From: Minisyncoccota bacterium
Lineage (GTDB): Bacteria; Patescibacteriota; Minisyncoccia; Phycocordibacterales; DATDWN01
Direction: 5' to 3'
NCBI GenBank assembly: GCA_036517395.1
Contig: DATDWN010000010.1
Span: forward strand, 33,922-97,921
Length of the DNA stretch: 64,000 nucleotides
The first letter of the stretch is position 1. The number at the start of each line of letters is the position of its first letter. Position numbers and translations under genes: made by a program. Under the pieces are notes generated by a model. That model searched no databases. It saw nothing but the letters and a program-made list of their open reading frames with translations, and had not been told where the DNA came from. Shown here piece after piece: positions 9,110-35,151 of the stretch.

Positions 9110-9726
9110 AACTAACAAAATATGAACAATCGGGGTTTGTGTTGGAGACTGATGCTGGATTTCGGTTGGCTTTTGATATTGGAGCATATACTCCTGTCGA
9201 AAAGCTAGAGGGTGTAGCGGTAGATGCAATGCTGGTCTCGCATCTGCACGGCGATCACTTTTCACCTGAACAGATAAAAGCACTTAGTGCTAAAAAACTT
9301 TACTTAAATCAGGAATGTGTGGATTTGTGGGGAGAAGGAGGTAATGGTATTGAAGTAGAAAGAGTTAAGGTTGGGGATAGTGTTAAAATCGGAGAGATTA
9401 GTGTGGAACTTTTTGATGTTAATCATGGGACAAATATTTCAATGAGACCAAAAGAGAACTTTGGTTTTTTGATGAAAGCAGATGGGCGGACTGTCTATTT
9501 TGCTGGGGATATGTTTTATGAGTCAGGTATGGATGTGAGTAGTCTTGAAGTTGATTTTGCACTTATACCAGTCGGAATTTTTTATACATTTGGTCCGGAA
9601 GAGGCTTTTGATTTTGCCAAGAAGTTCAAAGGGATTGGCAAAATTATCCCAATGCATTATGAAAAAACTCCAGGGACAAAAAGTAAGTTTATGGAATTAG
9701 CAAAAGGAACATTTGAATTAGAATAA
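9106..9726 (+). CDS. MBL-fold metallo-hydrolase
   Basis: HLHGDH zinc-binding motif (VSHLHGDHF). Confidence 0.7.
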   Translation: MKLTKYEQSGFVLETDAGFRLAFDIGAYTPVEKLEGVAVDAMLVSHLHGDHFSPEQIKALSAKKLYLNQECVDLWGEGGNGIEVERVKVGDSVKIGEISVELFDVNHGTNISMRPKENFGFLMKADGRTVYFAGDMFYESGMDVSSLEVDFALIPVGIFYTFGPEEAFDFAKKFKGIGKIIPMHYEKTPGTKSKFMELAKGTFELE

Positions 9727-11236: not shown

Positions 11237-14200
11237 ATGCAAAATTTACCATCTGCAACAGGAGTACGTCCGCAGAAGTTTTTCAGTCGCTTCAAGAAGC
11301 CGCTTTTACCGACACCGAACTTTGTCGAATCTCAACTGAACTCTTTCAAGTGGCTCACGGAGAAAGGTCTTTCAGAGGTCTTCACCGAGTTTTCTTCCAT
11401 AAAAGATTATTCGGAGAAAAAGTTCACTTTGGATTTTACTGGCTTTGAACTAGCCCAAGCCAAGTACGACGAGTACTATGCAAAGGACAACAAGCTTTCA
11501 TACGAAGCACCACTGAAAGTCAAGGTAAGGCTAAAAAATCATATTCTTGGCACAGAAAAAGAGCAGGAGATTTTCATGGCGGATTTTCCTCTGATGACTT
11601 CTCACGGTACTTTCATAATTTCCGGCATAGAGCGGGTTATCGTTCCTCAGCTGGCCCGATCCTACGGTGTTTTCTTTACAGCCAGTGAAGTCAAGGGCCG
11701 TAAACTTTTTGGGGCTAAGATTATACCTTCTAGGGGAGCATGGGTGGAGATTGAGTCTGACGCAGATGGTATGATTTTCGTTCGCATTGATCGCAAAAGA
11801 AAGTTTCCTGGCACCACTCTCTTGCGTGTCTTGGGGGCAAAAGATGATGGGGCTATAAAAAAACTTTTCGAAGGTGATAAATTTGCTACGGCGGCTATAG
11901 AAAAAACTCTTTTGAAAGATCACGGCAAAAGTATTGACGAGGCCTATATTGAAATACACAAAAGATTGCGTGATGGTGACTTGGCCACAGCAGAGAACGC
12001 CAAAGAATTTATTGATTCTATATTTGGAGGAGATCGCTATGATCTGTCTCCTGTCGGACGACATATGTTCAACAAGAGGTTTAATAAAAAGATGACAGAG
12101 GCGGAGCTGAAACGAAAAACTTTATCACTCGAAGACGTTGTTACTATTGTTTCTCATATCGCACTTCTAAACAATACTCCGCATGCAGTAGAGGATGATA
12201 TCGATCACCTCGGCACAAGGCGCGTCAGATTTGTCGGAGAACTTTTCCAGCAAAACATCCGCAAGGGAATGGCCCAGATCAAGCGAAATATCCAGAACAG
12301 AATGTCTACTATTGATACGGACGTCACTTTACCCGTACAGTTTGTGGCTCCTCGCCCACTTCAAGCTCGTATAAAAGAATTTTTTACAACCAACCAGCTT
12401 TCACAGTTTATGCTTCAGGAAAATTCTTTGGCCGAAATAGAACACTTGAGAACACTCTCTGCCCTCGGCGCGGGAGGCTTGAACCGTACTCGGGCTGGGT
12501 TTGAAGTGCGTGATGTCCACACTTCTCACTATGGCCGACTTTGTCCAATCCACACACCAGAAGGTCCGAACATTGGACTGGTTTTGCGTATGGCTATTTA
12601 CGCTAGAATCAACGCTTTCGGAATGATAGAAACCCCATACGCCAAAGTAAAAAGCGGAAAAGTGACAGACGAGATAGTTTATCTAAACGCTTCCCAAGAG
12701 GAGGAATACGCTATCGCTCACGCCGCTACTCCGGTAGACGAAACTGGCAAAATAACTGTGGCCCTAGTGGAAGTACGAAAAGAAGGTGAGCCAAGAGCTG
12801 TGCCAAAAGATCAGGTTGATTTTATGGATGTTTCTACAAGTCAGGCTTTTTCTATCGCCACATCTATGATTCCTTTTCTAAACCACAACAAAACTGACAG
12901 AGCGCTGATGGCATCAAACATGCAGAAACAGGCAACTCCTTGTATCGTTCCAGAGGCGCCTCTTGTGGCAACTGGTATGGAAACGAGTGCTATTCGTGAT
13001 ACTGGACGCCTTGTTATAGCGGGAGAAGAGGGCACAGTGACACACTCCGATGGTTTGAAAGTAGCAGTAAAAAATAGTAAAGGAAAAGAAATAGTTCACA
13101 ACTTAGTCAGATTTTCACGAACAAATGGTTTCACCGCTTTTCATCAGAGACCGAGTGTAAATGTGGGAGACAAGGTAAAGTTGGGTGATATCCTAGCGGA
13201 CACAAGCGCAAGTCAAAATGGTCAGTCCGCCATAGGTCAAAACATGCTTACGGCTTTCATGTCGTGGGGTGGTTCAAACTACGAAGACGCTATTATTCTT
13301 TCTGAAAGAGTTGTCAAAGATTCCAAGTTCACATCTATCCACATCGAAGAGTTTGTTGTAAATGTGCGTGATACGAAACTCGGTCCAGAAGTAACGACAT
13401 GCGATATTCCAAACGTAGGTGAAAGTAAACTGAAAAATCTTGCTGAAGATGGAATTGTCAGAGTCGGCGCTGAGGTCAGATCTGGAGATATTTTGGTGGG
13501 AAAGATTACTCCAAAGGGCGAGACACAACTAACACCAGAGGAGAGACTTTTGCGTAGTCTCTTCGGTGAAAAGGCTCACGATGTAAAAGATACATCAAAG
13601 AGAATGGAGGGTGGAAAGCGTGGACGAATCATAAAGGTTCAGATTTTCTCCCGAGAAAAAGGCGACAAACTTGATTCCGGAATTATAAAAAGAATACATA
13701 TTGAGGTAGCTCAACTGCGAAATGTTTCAGTTGGTGACAAACTGGCTGGACGACATGGAAACAAAGGTGTCATCTCGCGAATACTTCCAGAGGAGGACAT
13801 GCCTTATATGGCTGATGGAACTCCTGTTGATGTGATTTTGACTCCGCTCGGTGTGCCAAGCCGCATGAACTTGGGGCAAATATTGGAACTTCACTTAGGT
13901 CTTGCCGCTCATACTCTCGGTTATCAAGCAATAGTTCCGCCTTTTATCGGAGCAACGGGGCAAGAAATCAAAGCGGAGCTTGTGAAAGCGGGATTTCCCG
14001 AGAGTGGCAAGATAAAACTTTTTGATGGTCGAACGGGCGAAGCCTTTGAGAGGGATGTTGCCGTCGGATACATGTACATTATTAAACTTCACCACATGGT
14101 TGAAGATAAAATCCACATGCGTTCTATCGGGCCGTATTCTCTTATTACCCAGCAACCACTTGGTGGAAAGGCACAGAACGGAGGTCAAAGATTTGGAGAA

Positions 14201-17500: not shown

Positions 17501-18243
17501 AACCAAAAAATCCGGCTATCGTCTGTTCTGTTGGAGGCACTATTTCGGAAATACGCGTTACGGACAAGGAAAAAGTTATTGTTATAACTCCAAACCTGGA
17601 AGATAGAACCAAAACAAAAGACAAGATCGAATACTCGATTTCTCTCAACCGAACAGTTTTGGTCAAAGTCGGGGATGAAGTCAAAAAAGGCCAAATGATT
17701 ACGGACGGTTCGGCTGACATTGATGAGCTCTTCAAATTTGCTGGACGAGATAAAACTATTGACTATATTATTCACGAAATCAACAAGCCGTACGAACTTC
17801 AGGGAGAAACCGTTTCTCGAAAACATATTGAAACTATCGTTAGACAAATGTTCTCACGAAAGAGAGTGAAGTCCCCCGGGGATTCCGTTTTTCTAGAGGG
17901 AGATATTGTAGAGGAAGCATTCTTTGTTGAAGAAAATAATCGATTGAAGACTGAAGGGAAAGAAGAGGCCAAAGCCGAAGGAGTGGTTATGGGTATTACT
18001 GATGTTTCACTTTCTCGAAAGAGTTTCTTGGCGGCGGCTTCCTTCCAACACACAACGAGAATGCTTATCTCAAGCGCTATCAAGGGTAACGCTGACCAAC
18101 TTTCCGGGTTGATGGAAAACGTTATTCTAGGACGACTTATTCCGGCCGGTACTGGATTCAAGGGGAGCAAGAAAGCGGCGATGATTGCCGAAATGAGAGC
18201 GACCCGACCTGTGGTGTATGAAGATAGGAATCGATTTCAGTAA
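14566..18243 (+). CDS. rpoC: DNA-directed RNA polymerase subunit beta-prime
   Basis: Zn-binding CxxC..CxxC at the N-terminus, NADFDGD catalytic motif. 1225 aa. Confidence 0.97.
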
Positions 18244-28419: not shown

Positions 28420-28505
28420 GGGAATGAATTGACCTAATTATACTAATTATTTCTAATTAATCTAAATAATAACCAAATACCAAATTAGAAATTAGAACAA
28501 TTAAG
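28420..28505. repeat. AT-rich palindromic intergenic repeat family A, copy 2 (shorter)
   Basis: ctaattatttctaattaatctaaataataaccaaa...aattagaaattagaacaattaagttaattagaaataat. Confidence 0.65.
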
Positions 28506-29789
28506 TTAATTAGAAATAATTTTTACTATTTCTTCTGGTTTCACTGTTTTCTCCTCTCCGCTTTCCATGTTTTTTACTTTATACAAGCCGGACTTTATTT
28601 CATCTTGACCAACACAAATAATGAAAGGAATTCCTTGTTTGTCGGCAAGTTTTATTTGATCACCAAGTTTTTTGTCAGTCAGATTTACTGAAACATTGAG
28701 ACCGTCTTTACGCAAAGTTTCAGCCAGTTTTTGTGCGTAGTCGTTTACAGAAGAATCGAGTGTGCAAATATAAAGATCTGTGGATGATTTGTATTTTGGC
28801 AAAAGGCCGTGGGATTCCAAAAAGTCTTTGTTAGTAACATCACCCCAGCCGAAACCGACGGCTGGTATCTTTTTTGCTCCAAAAATATCCAAAAGGTCGT
28901 CATATCTTCCCCCGCCAAAAAGTGATCGGTTATTTTCTGGACTAGTATCAAACATTTCAAAAACCACACCTGTGTAATAGTCAAAACCGCGCATCAAGGT
29001 TGGACTGAAAATCACATTTTGAATACCAGCCGAGTCTAATTTCTCAATAAGCCCCATCAGTTCATCTGCATTTTTATTATTACCGAGGGACTCTAGTAGT
29101 CTCTCGCTCGAAGACAGCACTCGCGCGAAATCCGAGGCTTTATCACCAATGATTTTCTCTAAACTTTCTTCAAATGTCTCAGCTGATATTTTATCCTTTT
29201 TATCTATGATTTTTGAAACCGTGTGGGCTTGTTCTTCGTTTAGTTCAAACCGTGCATAAAGGTCGTTTATCAGTTTTCTGCTGTTTATTTTTATGACAAA
29301 GTCGCTGTCTTTTGCCCCGAACTCTTTTATTATGTTGTAGGCTATTGTGATAATTTCAGCATCTGCCTCACTATTTTCCACGCCAAATAAATCCACGTTG
29401 AGTTGCCAGTGCTCACGAAGGCGACCTCTCTGTGGTTTCTCGTATCGAAAAAGATTTGGCATTGAGTACCAGCGTAGAGGGAAAGCGAGGTCGTGGACTC
29501 TTCCTGCCACCAGTCTTGCCACCGTTGGTGTCATTTCTGGTCGCAGGGTTACTTCGCGGTTGCCTCGGTCTGTAAATGTGTAAGTCTGTTCGTTTACTAT
29601 TTCTTCACCCGTTTTTGCTTTGTATAGTTCTGCTGGTTCTAGGATTGATGCGCTGTATTCAACATAACCAAATCTCTCGACTACTTTGCGCCAAGTGTTG
29701 AATATATAGTTCTGCACGAACATATCTTCCGGATAAAAATCGCGTACGCCCTTGTAGCTTTCTGTTGATAGTTTGGATTTATTGGTCAT
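28506..29789 (-). CDS. hisS: Histidine--tRNA ligase
   Basis: Class II aaRS motifs. GGGRYDDL motif 3. Confidence 0.9.
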   Translation of the reverse strand: MTNKSKLSTESYKGVRDFYPEDMFVQNYIFNTWRKVVERFGYVEYSASILEPAELYKAKTGEEIVNEQTYTFTDRGNREVTLRPEMTPTVARLVAGRVHDLAFPLRWYSMPNLFRYEKPQRGRLREHWQLNVDLFGVENSEADAEIITIAYNIIKEFGAKDSDFVIKINSRKLINDLYARFELNEEQAHTVSKIIDKKDKISAETFEESLEKIIGDKASDFARVLSSSERLLESLGNNKNADELMGLIEKLDSAGIQNVIFSPTLMRGFDYYTGVVFEMFDTSPENNRSLFGGGRYDDLLDIFGAKKIPAVGFGWGDVTNKDFLESHGLLPKYKSSTDLYICTLDSSVNDYAQKLAETLRKDGLNVSVNLTDKKLGDQIKLADKQGIPFIICVGQDEIKSGLYKVKNMESGEEKTVKPEEIVKIISN

Positions 29790-29817
29790 GTGGGTTATTG
29801 TTAGTTTAGAATCTCTT

Positions 29818-29972
29818 TCTCACCAAAACCTTTTTGGAAACAGAATAAATTTCTGCTGAAATTTTTCTTCAGCGCTCGGAGCTCAAGTAAATTATCAATT
29901 GATTACAATTGTAATTTTCTAAGCTCTTGTGCGATGTTCCAAAAAGATTTTGCCTCGACGAGATTCTAAAGA
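29818..29972. repeat. 155-bp MITE-like repeat family 2, copy R1 (inverted relative to R2), immediately upstream of hisS
   Basis: About 95% identical to the reverse complement of 34058..34210. Internal 17-bp inverted termini caaaacctttttggaa. Contains the 12-bp palindrome ttacaattgtaa. Confidence 0.8.
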
Positions 29973-29999
29973 ACTGTATTTTATAGTGTATCAGAATAT

Positions 30000-30761
30000 A
30001 TGAAAAAAAATAGTGGTCTAAATTTAATCTATAAAAACCTTGGTGAGACGCCAAATGAGGCGATTTTGAGGTATAAAAGAGAAAATCCCGAATACGCCGA
30101 TCTCGCAATGACCTATGCCGGCAGACTGGATCCTATGGCTGAAGGAGTGCTTCTAGTTTTGTCGGGAGACGAAATAAAGGAGAAAGAAAAATATCTTGGT
30201 TTGCGAAAAACCTATGTTTTTGAAATATTGTGGGGATTTTTGACAGACTCTCTGGATTTACTTGGGCTAGTTTCTGGTCATCACTTGGACACTCCGTTTC
30301 CAAGTGATGAGGAAATGAAGACAAGGCTGAAAGAATACATTAGAAAGTTTGAGCAGAAATATCCAGCGTACTCCTCGAAAACTATTGTGGGTGTGCCATT
30401 ATTTAAACTAGCGAGACAAGGGAAGTTGGCGGATATTGAGATTCCAAAACACGAAGTGGAGATTTTTGAAGCCAAGTTTCTATCTCGCTGGTTTGTTTCA
30501 GGTGATGACTTATTAAAAAATATCGAGCATAAAATATCTCTAGTTTCCGGCGACTTTAGGCAATCTGAAATTTTGAAAAAATGGCAAGCAAACTTGTCAA
30601 CCTCACAGGTTGACAAGTTTGTAATAGACCGGATTGAAGTAACGGTTTCAAGCGGGTTTTATGTTAGGCAGTTTGTTTCGGATATAGCTGAATCTTTTGG
30701 AACAAAGGCCGTTACTTTTCATATAAAAAGAACTAGTATTGAAAATTTTTCAATCTTGTGA
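30000..30761 (+). CDS. truB: tRNA pseudouridine synthase (TruB family)
   Basis: YAGRLDPMAEGVLLVLSGDE matches the TruB catalytic Asp motif (GTLDPLATGVL). Confidence 0.7.
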   Translation: MKKNSGLNLIYKNLGETPNEAILRYKRENPEYADLAMTYAGRLDPMAEGVLLVLSGDEIKEKEKYLGLRKTYVFEILWGFLTDSLDLLGLVSGHHLDTPFPSDEEMKTRLKEYIRKFEQKYPAYSSKTIVGVPLFKLARQGKLADIEIPKHEVEIFEAKFLSRWFVSGDDLLKNIEHKISLVSGDFRQSEILKKWQANLSTSQVDKFVIDRIEVTVSSGFYVRQFVSDIAESFGTKAVTFHIKRTSIENFSIL

Positions 30762-30779
30762 TTATATAAAAAGCGGATT

Positions 30780-31210
30780 GTCGCAACCGCGTAGTTTACT
30801 CTGGAGGCCTAATGAGCGTCGTGTTGAAGGATCTCGAAAGGGCTAGTGGCAGGTTCGGTTTGCTTTTTCGGCGGGGGATGGGGCGAATGTGCCTCAGTTT
30901 CCAAGAGGTGGCAAACCGGTCGCGACTCGACAAGAGGTTAGTTGTCGAGGTTGCGGAAGGGCGGGCACACACCATCCGTCACGCCGAGGTGAGACGGATC
31001 ATGGACGTGGCTCTGCCGAAAGACATCGGTAGGATGAGGTCGGAGGCGTTTCATCTCCTCCTCATCTTCACGCCACGTCCACGTCCACGGTTTGTGCGGC
31101 GCATTCACCCCTCCCGTCGGTTTGCGCCTCAGAGGCGCAACTAGTTCCCGCCCAAAGCTTCGAAAAGGCCCCTCACATGCGATTGCAGCATGTGAGGGGC
31201 TCTCCGCTTA
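30780..31210. other. GC-rich (about 58% GC) 430-nt non-coding segment; candidate structured RNA. Ends with strong hairpin cccctcacatgc-gattgca-gcatgtgagggg
   Basis: The only ORF (30812..31144) is Arg-rich and not protein-like. The terminal 12-bp hairpin lies between the convergent truB and typA genes. Confidence 0.3.
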
Positions 31211-31212
31211 AA

Positions 31213-33048
31213 TTATTTTCTGGTCACTTTCTTTCTTAGTCTGACAGATTTCGGAGTAATCTCTATAAACTCGTCATCGGACATCACTTCCATAGCTTTC
31301 TCAATATCCAGTTTATAGGTAGCGGCGAGGTAAACGCTGTCATCTGATCCGGCCGCTCTCATGTTTGTCAGTTGTTTGCCTTTTGTTGGATTTACAAACA
31401 AGTCGTCGCCCTTTGAAACATTGCCTATGACTTGACCAACGTAGACTTCCACTCCTGGGTCAACATACAAAGTCCCTCTCTGTTGCAAGTTATCCAATGC
31501 AAAAGCCAAGACCTTGCCTTTTTCCATTGAAACCATCGAGCCGTAACTCGTCTTTTTTATTTCACCGACAAATTCTCTAAATTCTATAAATCGCGAAGAG
31601 AGAATGCCGTTGCCTTTTGTATCTACTATAAACTGCCCACGATAACCCAGAAGTCCGCGCGTCGGAATCTCAATTACAATTCTTTGATGCCCGTGTGTCT
31701 GCTTTACACTAGTTAAAATTCCACGTCTTTCTGTCAGTCGAGAAATAACAGAACCAGCCAATTCATCGGAGACATCCACAGTTACTTCTTCAAAAGGTTC
31801 CATTTTCACACCATTAACGTTTTCTTTTATAATAACGTGGGGCTGGGAAACCTGGAGTTCAAATCCTTCACGACGCATGTTTTCCAGAAGTATGGCGATG
31901 TGAAGCTCACCACGCCCGTATACAGTATAGCCTTGGATGGCCGGATTTTCATCATTCCACTCAATTTTCAACCCGACGTTTATTTCCAGCTCTTTTTCCA
32001 AGCGTTCACGAATTTGTCGTCCTGTGACAAACTTTCCTTCACGTCCGGCGAAGGGTGAGTCGTTTACCAAAAAGTTCATGGAAATAGTTGGTTCGTCAAT
32101 GTTTATAGATGGCAGGGTTTCCGCATCTTCGCTCTGGCAAATAGTGTCGCCAATATAAATAGTAGGAAGCCCCGCGATCATAACAATATCTCCCGCGGCG
32201 GCCATATCAGTTTCCACTCTTTTTGTACCTTCAAAGCTGAAAAGTTTTGTAAGTTTTCCCCTAAACTCAGGCTTTGCCTGAGTCGGGCGATCATCCGCTT
32301 CTGCGGATGATTTAGCCGAGATACCTTTTTTAACATATACAACATCGCCACTTTTTACGATGCCCTCGTAAACTCTACAGACAGCAAGTCTGCCGAGGAA
32401 GTTATCATATGCGAGGTTGAAAGATTGAAGTCGGGCTGGGAGATTTTTGTCTCCACTTGCTGCGGGCACTTCACGCAGTATTGTTTCAAGAAGGGGAGTT
32501 AAATCTTTTGATTCATCCGACAGTTTCATTTTGGCAATTCCGTCACGCCCGATAGCGTAAACAGTTGTAAAGTCCAGCTGTTCGTCGTTTGCGCCGAGCT
32601 CTAGGAAAAGCTCCAAAACAAGTTCATGCACTTCCTCTGGCCTTGCCGCTGCTTTGTCTATTTTATTTATTATGACGATAGGTTTCAATCCCAGTTCGAG
32701 AGATTTTTTCAAAACAAATCTAGTTTGTGGCATCGGCCCTTCCTGCGCATCGACGAGCAGAAGCACGGTGTCTATCGAACGTAGCACTCGCTCAACCTCG
32801 GAACCAAAGTCTGAGTGTCCAGGGGTATCAACAATATTTATTTTAGTAACTTCGCGACCTGAGTCTCTACTAGGGTAATACACTGATGTGTTTTTGGCGT
32901 ATATGGTAATGCCACGCTCGAGTTCGAGGGCGTTTGAGTCCATGGTGACACCCTCGGCAGTCATGCCTGTTTGGCGCATGAGAGCGTCGGTGAGAGTAGT
33001 CTTACCGTGATCAACGTGGGCTATGATTGCAATGTTTCGTATCTCCAT
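31213..33048 (-). CDS. typA: Translational GTPase TypA/BipA
   Basis: NIAIIAHVDHGKTTL G1 motif. PTISMNFLVNDSPFAGREGKFVTGRQIRERL and YGRGELHIAILLENMRREGFEL are diagnostic of BipA rather than LepA. Confidence 0.9.
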   Translation of the reverse strand: MEIRNIAIIAHVDHGKTTLTDALMRQTGMTAEGVTMDSNALELERGITIYAKNTSVYYPSRDSGREVTKINIVDTPGHSDFGSEVERVLRSIDTVLLLVDAQEGPMPQTRFVLKKSLELGLKPIVIINKIDKAAARPEEVHELVLELFLELGANDEQLDFTTVYAIGRDGIAKMKLSDESKDLTPLLETILREVPAASGDKNLPARLQSFNLAYDNFLGRLAVCRVYEGIVKSGDVVYVKKGISAKSSAEADDRPTQAKPEFRGKLTKLFSFEGTKRVETDMAAAGDIVMIAGLPTIYIGDTICQSEDAETLPSINIDEPTISMNFLVNDSPFAGREGKFVTGRQIRERLEKELEINVGLKIEWNDENPAIQGYTVYGRGELHIAILLENMRREGFELQVSQPHVIIKENVNGVKMEPFEEVTVDVSDELAGSVISRLTERRGILTSVKQTHGHQRIVIEIPTRGLLGYRGQFIVDTKGNGILSSRFIEFREFVGEIKKTSYGSMVSMEKGKVLAFALDNLQQRGTLYVDPGVEVYVGQVIGNVSKGDDLFVNPTKGKQLTNMRAAGSDDSVYLAATYKLDIEKAMEVMSDDEFIEITPKSVRLRKKVTRK

Positions 33049-33422
33049 TTGTTTGATTTGTATATTTGGCGCATTTCGTTGTTGGAAAGCAAAAAATTAT
33101 TCTCACCTGCGCACTCAGGCAGGCTCGAATCCTTTTTCACTTTCCGCCTAGAACTGCATCCAAATCTCCAAATCAAAGGATGCAATTCATTGAAAAACCG
33201 GCTACAGCCGGCGGTCAAGATTTAATTAAAGCATAATTTGTTTAATGATGCAAATTAGGCCTAATTATGGCTAATTTTAGGCCTTATTTTGGTACTTGAC
33301 ACGAGTATACTTGCGGTATACAATATAGGTAGATTCTTCGGGCTCCTCTCCCTACCCCTCAATACGAACTTCTGGAAAGTTAACTGTTCGGCCACGGGCC
33401 GACGCACACTGAGGTAGCAGCC

Positions 33423-33974
33423 ATGCCAACGTATTCGCAGATTCTGCCCTGGGCTCTGGCCTGGGCTCTGGCCTTCTTCGGTTTTCTCATTCTCTTTGGC
33501 ATCATCTTCCAGAAGAAGCACAAAAGTGACATCGACGCGCTGAAAGTCGACATCACGTTGTGGAAGACGAATTCGAAGGAGCTGTCCACGACGCTCGAGA
33601 ATATGAGGAGGGAGGTGAGTGACCTCACCCATGAACGTGACGACCTGAAGCAGTTCGTCAGCGCGTTCGTCTCGGACGAGCATGCCCTCGAGGTCATGGG
33701 TCTCGCCACGGCGCGTATGCACGAGGTCTGCCAGAAGGCCGTCGGCGATCACGGAAAATTTCCCACATACGACCTCGACCCCGACGAGTTTCAACGGCAG
33801 CTCCTCATGGTTGTATCCATCATGGCGTCGGAGGCGGAGGTCGTCGAACGTGCCGCCGATGACTGGCGATCTCTCATGTATCTCGCGATGCATGCGGGTT
33901 ATCCCACGAGGATCGACCCCACGACCCGGAGGGTGGTCATTGACCGCGAGAAGGAGGCGTCGAGCGCGGCGTAG
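33423..33974 (+). CDS. Hypothetical membrane/coiled-coil protein; GC-rich
   Basis: N-terminal TM helix, then a charged coiled-coil-like region. Chosen over the antisense 210-aa ORF. Hairpin terminator gggccgaac..gttcggccc at about 33998..34030. Confidence 0.4.
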   Translation: MPTYSQILPWALAWALAFFGFLILFGIIFQKKHKSDIDALKVDITLWKTNSKELSTTLENMRREVSDLTHERDDLKQFVSAFVSDEHALEVMGLATARMHEVCQKAVGDHGKFPTYDLDPDEFQRQLLMVVSIMASEAEVVERAADDWRSLMYLAMHAGYPTRIDPTTRRVVIDREKEASSAA

Positions 33975-34057
33975 TCGTCGTCGACAGCGTAGTTCTTTAA
34001 GGGCCGAACCGTATGTGTTCGGCCCTTTCGCTTATCTAAATATAATTTTAACCACTA

Positions 34058-34210
34058 AGCCCAATCTCGTCGAGGCAAAACCTTTTTGGAACATCGCGCA
34101 GGAGCTTAGAAAATTACAATTGTAACCAATTGATAATTTACTTGAGTTCCGAGCGTGAAGAAAAATTTCAACAGAAATTTATTCTGTTTCCAAAAAGGTT
34201 TTGGTGAGAA
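34058..34210. repeat. 155-bp MITE-like repeat family 2, copy R2, immediately upstream of the DedA-like gene
   Basis: Matches the reverse complement of R1. Termini caaaacctttttggaac ... gtttccaaaaaggtttt. Confidence 0.8.
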
Positions 34211-34244
34211 AGAGATTGGGCGAATTGTGTGCTAAAATGTCTCA

Positions 34245-34841
34245 ATGTTCCTATCTCCGACACACGCTCTGGCCATTCTCGAGCACTATCACTACTGGCT
34301 TATTTTTCCTATTGCTGTGATTGAAGGTCCGATTATCATAATCATTTCTGGCTTTCTGGTTTCTCTCGGTTTTCTGAACACATATATCGCTTTTGCCGTT
34401 CTCGTTCTTGCTGACACCATAGGCGACTCTTTGTATTATCTTCTCGGCAGGTATTGGAGAAGGGCGGAGTGGGTTAAAAAAATCGCTCTTTTCTTGGGAT
34501 TTAATGAAGACAAGGAAAAATCTCTGGAAAACCATTTCAAAAAGCATAAAATCAAAACTTTTCTTTTGGCCAAAATATCTCACGGTATTGGTGGGTCGGT
34601 TCAGGTGGCGGGCGGTTACGCCGGAGTGGATTATCTGGAATTTCTAGCCCTTACTCTTCTAGGCACCATACCCAAAACTTTTGTCCTCATGATAGTCGGC
34701 TTTTATTTGGGCAACTCATACATGACCATTGATAGCTTTTTGGATTACATCGGCTTTATAGTTTTCAGTATCTTTGTATTTCTCATCCTATATCTGGTTT
34801 TGGGCAAATATGTCAAAAGTTATTTTGCCAAAGGAGAATAG
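34245..34841 (+). CDS. DedA/VTT-family membrane protein
   Basis: Multi-TM protein. IEGPIIIIISGFL resembles the DedA re-entrant motif. Confidence 0.5.
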   Translation: MFLSPTHALAILEHYHYWLIFPIAVIEGPIIIIISGFLVSLGFLNTYIAFAVLVLADTIGDSLYYLLGRYWRRAEWVKKIALFLGFNEDKEKSLENHFKKHKIKTFLLAKISHGIGGSVQVAGGYAGVDYLEFLALTLLGTIPKTFVLMIVGFYLGNSYMTIDSFLDYIGFIVFSIFVFLILYLVLGKYVKSYFAKGE

Positions 34842-35114
34842 TTGACTTATAATATAGAGATGACAGAGACACTACCTCCACTTACACTACCCACCATTCC
34901 ATATATAAATCTACCTTTTCTTTTTAGTCTGCAAATACTCATGGTTATTTTTGTTCTGTTTCTAATAACATATCTTATTGTGTCCGCGGTTTTGTTTTAC
35001 CACTGGACATCATATGGTATGCGCAGTTTTGGTATATTAGTGGCGGAAACGCTGTTTACCATAGTTTCGGTTACGCTTTTTACCGTGGCTGGTTTAGCCC
35101 TGCATTATTTTTAG
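34842..35114 (+). CDS. Small membrane protein (90 aa)
   Basis: Two hydrophobic helices. Confidence 0.3.
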   Translation: MTYNIEMTETLPPLTLPTIPYINLPFLFSLQILMVIFVLFLITYLIVSAVLFYHWTSYGMRSFGILVAETLFTIVSVTLFTVAGLALHYF

Positions 35115-35151
35115 AAATTAGAATAATTAGGTTAATTAGAAATTTAATAAT

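Follow-up and report, generated by a model that had tools for sequence, protein, structure and literature searches.

Two inverted copies of a sequence of about 155 nt, here called R1 and R2, lie 4.1 kb apart in a 64,000-nt stretch of a Minisyncoccota genome (the whole of which is hereafter the window). Both probably arose recently as copies within one subfamily of a mobile element, non-autonomous and hairpin-forming, that resembles the miniature transposable elements with inverted repeats known as MITEs, in the Zambryskibacteria/Paceibacteria of the candidate phyla radiation (CPR), ultra-small bacteria of groundwater. The first-pass annotation of this DNA had named a MITE as one of its alternatives, and it is this suggestion that has held: R1 is absent from the truB-hisS spacer of relatives, further copies are found at unrelated sites, and the element yields no open reading frame (ORF), protein or Rfam match. 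Members are inserted in varied spacers in either orientation, and one lies in frame inside truB.

Positions 29810-29965 on the minus strand align with 34063-34217 on the plus strand over 156 columns at 95.5% identity, with one 1-nt indel (blastn and nhmmer; E ~1e-55). Direct alignment and both programs agree on the existence of the 155-bp inverted copies first described, but place them 5-8 nt away from their original coordinates. No third copy was found inside the 64-kb window by blastn, nhmmer, fuzzy arm searches or a covariance model. The units are as follows.

29810..29965, minus strand: R1 core, 156 nt; the sense strand is the minus strand of the window, toward hisS; covariance model score 191.5 bits
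34063..34217, plus strand: R2 core, 155 nt; the sense strand is the plus strand, toward the VTT/DedA gene; covariance model score 190.5 bits
34059..34221, plus strand: entire R2 hairpin with its copy-specific outer stem, GCCC/GGGC, from the minimum free energy (MFE) structure and outward pairing analysis

Each copy is a long imperfect palindrome, the whole of which is predicted to fold into one hairpin with a three-way junction: a closing stem leads through a conserved asymmetric internal loop to a 16-bp perfect stem and then to the junction, from which two hairpins emerge, A (long) and B (short). For R2 the MFE is -76.6 kcal/mol when folded as RNA (z = -13.0) and -48.6 kcal/mol when folded as DNA (z = -12.3); for R1 the RNA value is -61.6 kcal/mol (z = -8.6). 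The inverted termini noted earlier, CAAAACCTTTTTGGAA and TTCCAAAAAGGTTTTG, are indeed complementary at 16 of 16 positions in R2 and 15 of 16 in R1, and these 16 nt are a mere core of arms about 30 nt long. R1 occupies the spacer shared by the divergently transcribed hisS and truB, and R2 stands between a GC-rich gene with its own terminator and the DedA gene. As had been proposed, both copies are oriented alike relative to the next gene (hisS and VTT/DedA, respectively), an agreement expected by chance in 50% of cases with two copies.

Insertion of R1 and members elsewhere

The relatives compared were those on contigs L138, L139, L140/L141, L159 and L160, in which hisS is 68-87% identical to that of the window at the amino acid level. 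The truB-hisS spacer measures 18-23 nt in five relatives versus 210 nt in the window, and it is because these orthologous spacers are so short that R1 is recognized as part of a 188-nt insertion, with the ancestral spacer divided on either side of it.

29800..29987, minus strand: whole insertion, 188 nt; to the R1 core it adds a copy-specific outer stem, GTTCTTTAG paired with CTAAACTAAC, and a further 13 nt, ACTATAAAATACA
29988..29999, minus strand: truB-proximal half of the ancestral spacer, reading ATATTCTGATAC on the hisS strand; from comparison with L138, L139, L140, L159 and L160
29790..29799, minus strand: the other half of that spacer, next to hisS, which reads AATAACCCAC in the hisS direction and abuts the hisS ATG; matches ACAATAACTCAT-ATG of L139 and L160

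The empty site in L160 reads CAT-ATTCTGATACAATAACTCAT-ATG and the occupied site in the window CAT-AT-ATTCTGATAC-(188 nt)-AATAACCCAC-ATG; once the flanks are rejoined, ATTCTGATAC/AATAACCCAC matches the ATTCTGATACAATAACTCAT of L160. The insertion has cut the ancestral extended -10 box of hisS (TGATAC/AAT), which in relatives reads TGATACAAT and stands 7 nt before the ATG. At the left junction the truB-proximal spacer half and the insertion together form TGATACACT, an extended -10-like box that is presumably active, points into R1 and is the very box naturally present before hisS in L140. The right junction, CTAACAAT-AACCCAC-ATG, carries a weakened box. Insertion of R1 into a pre-existing palindrome is disfavoured, neither arm of the outer stem being present at the empty sites of relatives. 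R2 is also considered lineage-specific, since a covariance-model search of the DedA-typA spacers in L140, L159 and L160 detects no element.

A third copy in this genome, R3, lies about 6.3 kb past the end of the window (L147 18431-18617), between a penicillin-binding protein gene and greA; it is 62% identical, scores 145.7 bits, and has the arms and architecture of R1 and R2. A scan of species-representative genomes with exact patterns returned two partial matches, L142 and L143, both from Zambryskibacteria. The interior of L142 is homologous to that of R3 and its right arm is that of R1/R2 at 36 of 37 aligned nt, its left arm being lost, and L143 is a solo left arm of the family. Among the relatives, L159 carries a member of about 130 nt (11276-11411) in the spacer that separates hisS from an RNase H-like gene, in antisense orientation to either gene. 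L160 carries two: L160a (9537-9712), of the R1/R2 subfamily, lies antisense inside the truB ORF, the product of which has 302 amino acids rather than 253-261 through an in-frame insertion of about 49 residues at a variable loop, and L160b (17831-17965; 63 bits, E = 5e-13) was found by the covariance model alone, having been left out of its building. This genome has three copies in the approximately 83 kb covered, and five more occupy non-orthologous sites in three other Zambryskibacteria; the density in the sampled DNA is about one copy per 10-30 kb.

Other palindromes came to light in the same searches. Metagenome matches to the pattern CTTTTTGGAAN{85,115}TTCCAAAAAG were unrelated sequences among the matches listed. 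Three metagenome contigs (L035 166-330, L092 1730-1896 and L106 2205-2372) share a palindromic repeat, AAAAAAGTAGCCCCCC..AAAACTTTTTGGAA ... TTCCAAAAAGTTTTAGGGGGG..CTAC, and were rejected as family members; they form a separate palindromic family that has only a 14-nt stem core in common with the element. A 24-nt exact match to the right arm (AAAAGGTTTTGGTGAGAAAGAGAT) in the viral contig L150 (3952-3975) falls inside a phage ORF (…PKGFGEKEI…) with no partner arm, and is probably due to chance. Adjoining the solo left arm in L143 is a different palindromic element of about 130 nt (1339-1468; GTCATAACTTCCAAATCTG ... CAGATTTGGAAGTTCTGAC), an arrangement that suggests several hairpin-element families nested in the spacers of Zambryskibacteria.

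Conserved anatomy and pairing

The arms are conserved in all full members (left consensus AAAAyCTC-GTCGAsG-CAAAAyCTTTT, right consensus AAAAGGTTTTG-GkGAGAAA-GAGrTTTT), and they pair into a long stem with an asymmetric purine-rich internal loop. Beyond them, hairpin A is long and subfamily-specific and hairpin B is short. In an alignment of five members, 94% of the stem cells are paired and 12 of the 30 pairs have changed on both sides. Such compensatory changes lead from TTGGAA/TTCCAA to TCAGAG/CTCTGA in one stem segment, and from AATCTC/GAGATT to AACCTC/GAGGTT to AAATTC/GAATTT in another. None of 500 shuffles reaches the observed values, and a slid partner leaves 37-62% of the cells paired. 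The interior hairpins contribute further double changes, seven between R2 and L160a and 14 between R3 and L142. As read from these alignments, the hairpin is maintained, and it is structure rather than sequence that is conserved. The internal loop, GTCGAsG / GkGAGAAA, is nearly invariant while the stems around it vary.

The two strands are not equivalent. In each of R1, R2 and R3 the fold of the sense strand is more stable than that of the antisense strand, by 8-14 kcal/mol, and the stem cells hold eight G.U wobbles in the sense strand versus two C.A cells, which correspond to wobbles of the antisense; this bias of 8 to 2 is weak evidence, because the cells are not independent. Past the terminal AAAA...TTTT the stem continues with copy-specific sequence for 3, 2, 8, 0, 1 and 4 bp in R1, R2, R3, L159, L160a and L160b, respectively, an extension that is well above chance for R3 (~2e-5) and L160b. 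The element's own termini may turn over fast, with compensation, to give these outer stems; other candidate origins are synthesis templated by the hairpin upon insertion and later quasipalindrome template switching.

The element matches nothing in Rfam, either at gathering thresholds or at E<=10, and its six-frame translation has no homologue at E<=1 among 5.8 billion protein sequences; no ORF within it bears a Pfam domain. A 6S-like RNA, a retron, an attC site, a bridge RNA and an omega RNA were considered on account of shape and set aside, there being no adjacent partner gene, a variable site and orientation, and truncated remnants.

Promoters, gene context and the bracketed segment

As part of its MITE alternative, the first-pass annotation had suggested that each copy carries a regulated promoter, with the 12-bp palindrome TTACAATTGTAA as its operator, which would coordinate the two downstream genes. 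The palindrome is present once per copy, and the DedA gene has a putative promoter element of its own.

29903..29914, unstranded: TTACAATTGTAA in R1, part of the distal stem of internal hairpin A
34114..34125, unstranded: TTACAATTGTAA in R2, part of the distal stem of hairpin A (CAATTG-TAAC-CAATTG)
34230..34238, plus strand: TGCTAAAAT, read from the sequence as a putative extended -10-like box that serves the VTT/DedA gene, the ATG of which follows after 6 nt

As an operator, TTACAATTGTAA fails to be a feature of the family, since the interiors of R3, L142 and L159 differ and the palindrome is one side of a subfamily-specific stem. L160a reads TAACAATGGTAC in its place, so that the palindrome is gone, yet CAATTG/CAATTG is kept as CAATGG/CCATTG by compensatory change; because pairing outlives the palindrome, the latter is regarded as a by-product of the stem. 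Matches to TTACAATTGTAA with at most two mismatches number three in the window versus 6.1 expected by chance. The centre of the CAATTG palindrome was also considered as an insertion target; its register differs between copies, and the resemblance was judged a coincidence.

The promoter itself fared no better. The promoter-like stretch TTGATAATTTACTTGAG receives no sigma-70 call, its TTGATA having no -10 hexamer at 16-18 nt, and on the sense strand the sigma-70 scan calls no promoter anywhere within the element; across the region, sites that look like promoters occur at the level of chance (19 found vs 13.8 +/- 3.8 expected). Coordination of both genes from within the element is therefore not upheld, the DedA gene having its own extended -10 box downstream of R2, the position of which suggests that this gene may be leaderless. 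The greA gene downstream of R3 has the promoter TTGACC-17-TATACT. A T-box or riboswitch upstream of hisS was rejected as well: there is no Rfam match, the spacer of relatives is 20 nt long, and their hisS is apparently leaderless.

The motif TGnTAnAAT stands 6-7 nt before the ATG of hisS in relatives (L138 560-581, L139 449-466, L160 9981-10000) and of the DedA gene here (34230-34247), and neither these hisS genes nor the DedA gene has a Shine-Dalgarno sequence; the pattern suggests that leaderless mRNAs are common in this lineage. In the 20-nt spacer of the relatives, the -10 boxes of truB and hisS overlap on opposite strands.

The genes around and between the two copies are these.

28506..29789, minus strand: hisS (histidyl-tRNA synthetase), downstream of R1; Pfam tRNA-synt_His, 1.6e-47
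30000..30761, plus strand: truB, divergent from hisS; Pfam TruB_N, 2.3e-21
31213-33048, minus strand: typA, identified by Pfam
34245..34841, plus strand: VTT/DedA-family gene, downstream of R2; Pfam VTT_dom, 1e-13

Those homologues of hisS and DedA that bear organism names come from metagenome-assembled genomes (MAGs) of Minisyncoccia, Parcubacteria and Zambryskibacteria, an identical DedA protein is annotated in a 'Candidatus Paceibacterota' MAG, and contigs with identical proteins derive from groundwater-type metagenomes. The GC-rich ORFs at 30812-31144 and 33261-33974 match no Pfam family.

Inversion of the 4.1-kb segment by homologous recombination between the copies had also been put forward. 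The broader reading, in which R1 and R2 bound an invertible segment and homologous or site-specific recombination flips truB-typA and alters expression, now appears highly improbable. Inverted repeats of 155 bp at 95.5% identity and 4.1 kb apart are a possible RecA substrate, and some short contigs (L008, L017 and L155) end within the repeats; contig ends inside a palindrome are, however, an expected assembly artefact. The gene order DedA (leftward), typA (rightward), truB (leftward), hisS (rightward) is the same as in the window in the four relatives that span it (L140, L141, L159 and L160), and because it is identical in relatives lacking R1, the arrangement is ancestral and not one state of a switch. 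Both copies are spanned by seven contigs from five assemblies, every one of which has the orientation of the window, with 0-1 mismatches over 6336 nt. No chimeric R1/R2 junction was found, the partial contigs carrying diagnostic bases purely of R1 or purely of R2, and L158, the one contig that diverges, carries a variant of R1 (one deletion, one substitution) and is no chimera. There is no recombinase among the genes called within +/-10 kb, and inversion would in any case switch nothing, since each flanking gene would keep the same promoter-proximal half of the element. A composite transposon R1-truB-typA-R2 was likewise rejected, as the bracketed genes are syntenic core genes in relatives. 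We infer that the 4.1-kb segment is ordinary core genome and not a cassette or a switch; rare RecA-mediated inversion may occur beyond what the assemblies show.

Within the segment, an island at 33290-34030 has 54-62% GC versus about 39% for the genome. It holds a 183-aa ORF (33423-33974, plus strand) with a consensus promoter TTGACA-17-TACAAT at 33296-33324, a Shine-Dalgarno sequence and a terminator hairpin at about 34001-34028, and is overlapped by an antisense 210-aa ORF. The ORF has no Pfam or NCBIfam match and a weak PHROG match to an 'Rz-like spanin' (7.6e-4). The island is absent from the relative L140, many contigs of the same strain break within 33575-34004, and it looks like a recently acquired, possibly strain-variable gene. 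A second GC-rich stretch (30812-31144, ~58% GC) separates truB from the 3' end of typA and holds a 110-aa ORF without a family match; relatives have other small ORFs at this position. Outside the segment, a 33-nt AT-rich direct repeat, TTAGAAATTAGAAyAATTArGTTAATTAGAAAT, occurs at 28485-28517 and 35111-35143, 6.6 kb apart and 94% identical, one copy lying over the hisS stop codon and the other just upstream of a bPH_2 gene; it is partly palindromic with 28427-28468.

Mobilisation and comparison with known systems

In the proposed mechanism the element would be mobilised in trans by an enzyme whose substrate, or sole tolerated form, is probably the folded single strand; this is suggested because pairing rather than sequence is conserved throughout and because the sense strand folds better. 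Effects on neighbouring genes would be by-products of insertion. Transcription of hisS would start either at the displaced promoter, passing through a structured leader of about 200 nt, or at the weaker new -10 box of the right junction, and R2 would have replaced the -35 region of the DedA promoter.

Several observations weigh against a MITE-like element. The copy number comes from a small sample, three copies in about 83 kb, and the wider genome scan used exact 22-mers. Every strain sampled through exact-protein matches for hisS, DedA and truB carries both R1 and R2, and mobility is for this reason deduced from comparison between species and not from polymorphism. There is no consistent target-site duplication; the candidates are 4-5 nt in AT-rich DNA or palindromic (ATAA for R1, AATT for R2, TTAA for R3, TAACA for L159 and the palindromic TTTTAAAA for L160b), inconsistent in length and offset, and chance matches are expected in such DNA. 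In the approximately 83 kb of this genome examined there is no autonomous insertion sequence with matching ends, only solo arms, and the sole transposase gene seen, of the Y1/RAYT type about 1.4 kb past the end of the window, is flanked by unrelated hairpins. Finally, the invariant asymmetric loop and the strand asymmetry exceed the needs of a classical MITE, with terminal inverted repeats recognized as double-stranded DNA.

If the family were a functional structured RNA, whether a small RNA or a cis-acting module such as a protein-binding or RNase-processed hairpin, selection would act at the RNA level and dispersal would be secondary, a reading we consider unlikely. The better fold of the sense strand in R1, R2 and R3, the sense-favouring wobbles, the strong covariation in arms and interior hairpins and the near-invariant internal loop all speak for it, as does the fact that all three copies of this genome lie in sense orientation upstream of a gene, R1 probably being read through from the displaced hisS promoter. 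It is with similarly low probability that the closing stem, the asymmetric internal loop of tandem G.A type and the three-way junction are themselves the selected features of such an RNA. Orientation is not kept in the family: L159 and L142 run antisense to the neighbouring genes, and L160a lies in a coding region, again antisense. Moreover, there is no Rfam match, relatives lack the element at orthologous sites, two members (L142 and L143) are truncated remnants, and no consistent promoter or terminator flanks the copies. Pairing is, in general, also maintainable without RNA function, via arm-to-arm templated correction of DNA palindromes, for which quasipalindrome template switching is an established route.

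A further reading starts from the transposase gene near the window end. The element would be a hairpin of the repetitive extragenic palindromic (REP) or REPIN type, or one derived from IS200/IS605 (like the palindrome-associated transposable elements), and the product of this gene, a Y1 (HUH) tyrosine transposase, would move it in the form of single-stranded DNA. The gene (L147 13437-14111; 224 aa) lies on the same contig, and matches Pfam PF01797 at 1.4e-10 and NCBIfam REP_Tyr_transpos at 7e-7, below the cut-off of the latter; a GC-rich 289-aa ORF without a known family precedes it. Recognition of a single-stranded hairpin would fit the strand-asymmetric folding, the want of a clear target-site duplication, the conserved imperfections of the hairpin and the keeping of pairing over sequence. 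The gene is, however, flanked by, and contains, the hairpin GTTAGACACCGAGTGTCTAAC (L147 12427-14150, about 0.4-2.2 kb past the window end). These hairpins (TGTTAGACACCGAGTGTCTAACA) are unrelated to the arms of the element and absent from the window, and hence there is no evidence tying the Y1 gene to the element. No conserved tetranucleotide lies 5' of the copies, and the element, at 155-190 nt with a three-way junction, is far larger than a REP. Involvement of this transposase is accordingly quite improbable. There is, in addition, a small chance that the family is a strand-specific hairpin element rather than a cut-and-paste MITE, its folded single-stranded DNA or RNA being recognized via the asymmetric loop of tandem G.A type, with insertion free of target duplication and an outer stem made by hairpin-templated synthesis. 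That such synthesis would occur by fold-back priming or by quasipalindrome template switching, at or after insertion, is a comparably doubtful proposition. If true, a strand-specific element of this sort would represent an undescribed mode of mobility or a mobile RNA module, specific to CPR bacteria.

The genomes of CPR bacteria (Patescibacteria) are tiny, and we know of no small non-coding mobile element described in them. Literature searches returned no description of one, and the phrase 'candidate phyla' is absent from a 2024 review of prokaryotic MITEs. An essential tRNA synthetase gene with a hairpin element in its -10 box, and a truB with one in frame, indicate that streamlined genomes tolerate, and are shaped by, such elements. 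The covariance model and end motifs are usable to annotate the family, which would keep CPR MAGs free of mis-annotated spacers, spurious ORFs and contig breaks induced by palindromes. With its asymmetric loop, strand bias and copy-specific outer stems, the family is also a reasonable test case for the movement of palindromic elements without an evident transposase.

Among known systems, invertons combine short inverted repeats with a promoter-sized segment, an adjacent invertase and both orientations in populations; inverted repeats that bracket a DNA segment are common to both, and the other features of invertons are not seen here. REPINs are reportedly doublets of REPs of 20-40 nt that also flank their RAYT gene, an account attributed to Bertels and Rainey in 2011. 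The present element is likewise a hairpin-forming non-coding repeat that may move as a single strand, in a genome with a RAYT-like Y1 gene, but the hairpins flanking that gene are of another sequence. Correia elements (CREE/NEMIS) of Neisseria are about 155 bp long with inverted termini of about 26 nt, lie just upstream of genes and are co-transcribed as hairpins; they disrupt or create promoters, and feature a TA duplication, an IHF site, outward promoters and cleavage by RNase III. The element is alike in size, inverted termini and the placement of a hairpin next to promoters, the last of which it shares also with the enterobacterial repetitive intergenic consensus (ERIC) sequences, and differs from Correia elements in that it has no TA duplication at its ends, no called promoter and no IHF site found by eye.

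MITEs are defined by a length of <500 bp, inverted termini, AT-richness, intergenic location and a stable stem-loop (PMC10969869). Like those of type II, the element is <500 bp, AT-rich and mostly intergenic near promoters, with terminal inverted repeats and no transposase (PMC10969869), and it resembles MITEs also in its stable transcript stem-loops, its multiple diverged copies and its insertion differences between genomes. It departs from them in pairing along the whole unit, in the invariant asymmetric internal loop and the copy-specific outermost stem, and in having neither a consistent direct target duplication nor a related autonomous insertion sequence that could be found. The Rickettsia palindromic elements, said to have been described by Ogata et al. 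in 2000 and summarised in PMC10969869, are reportedly palindromes of about 150 bp that populate a reduced genome, often in frame in genes; how they are mobilised is, to our knowledge, not known. The present family shares with them a palindrome of about 150 bp in a reduced genome, placed in spacers and, once, in frame in a housekeeping gene (truB of L160) with the ORF left open. It differs in that there is a single in-frame case and an unrelated phylum; the likeness proposed here is one of behaviour. Together, these comparisons describe a new MITE/RPE-like family in a CPR lineage, of a kind that is already known.

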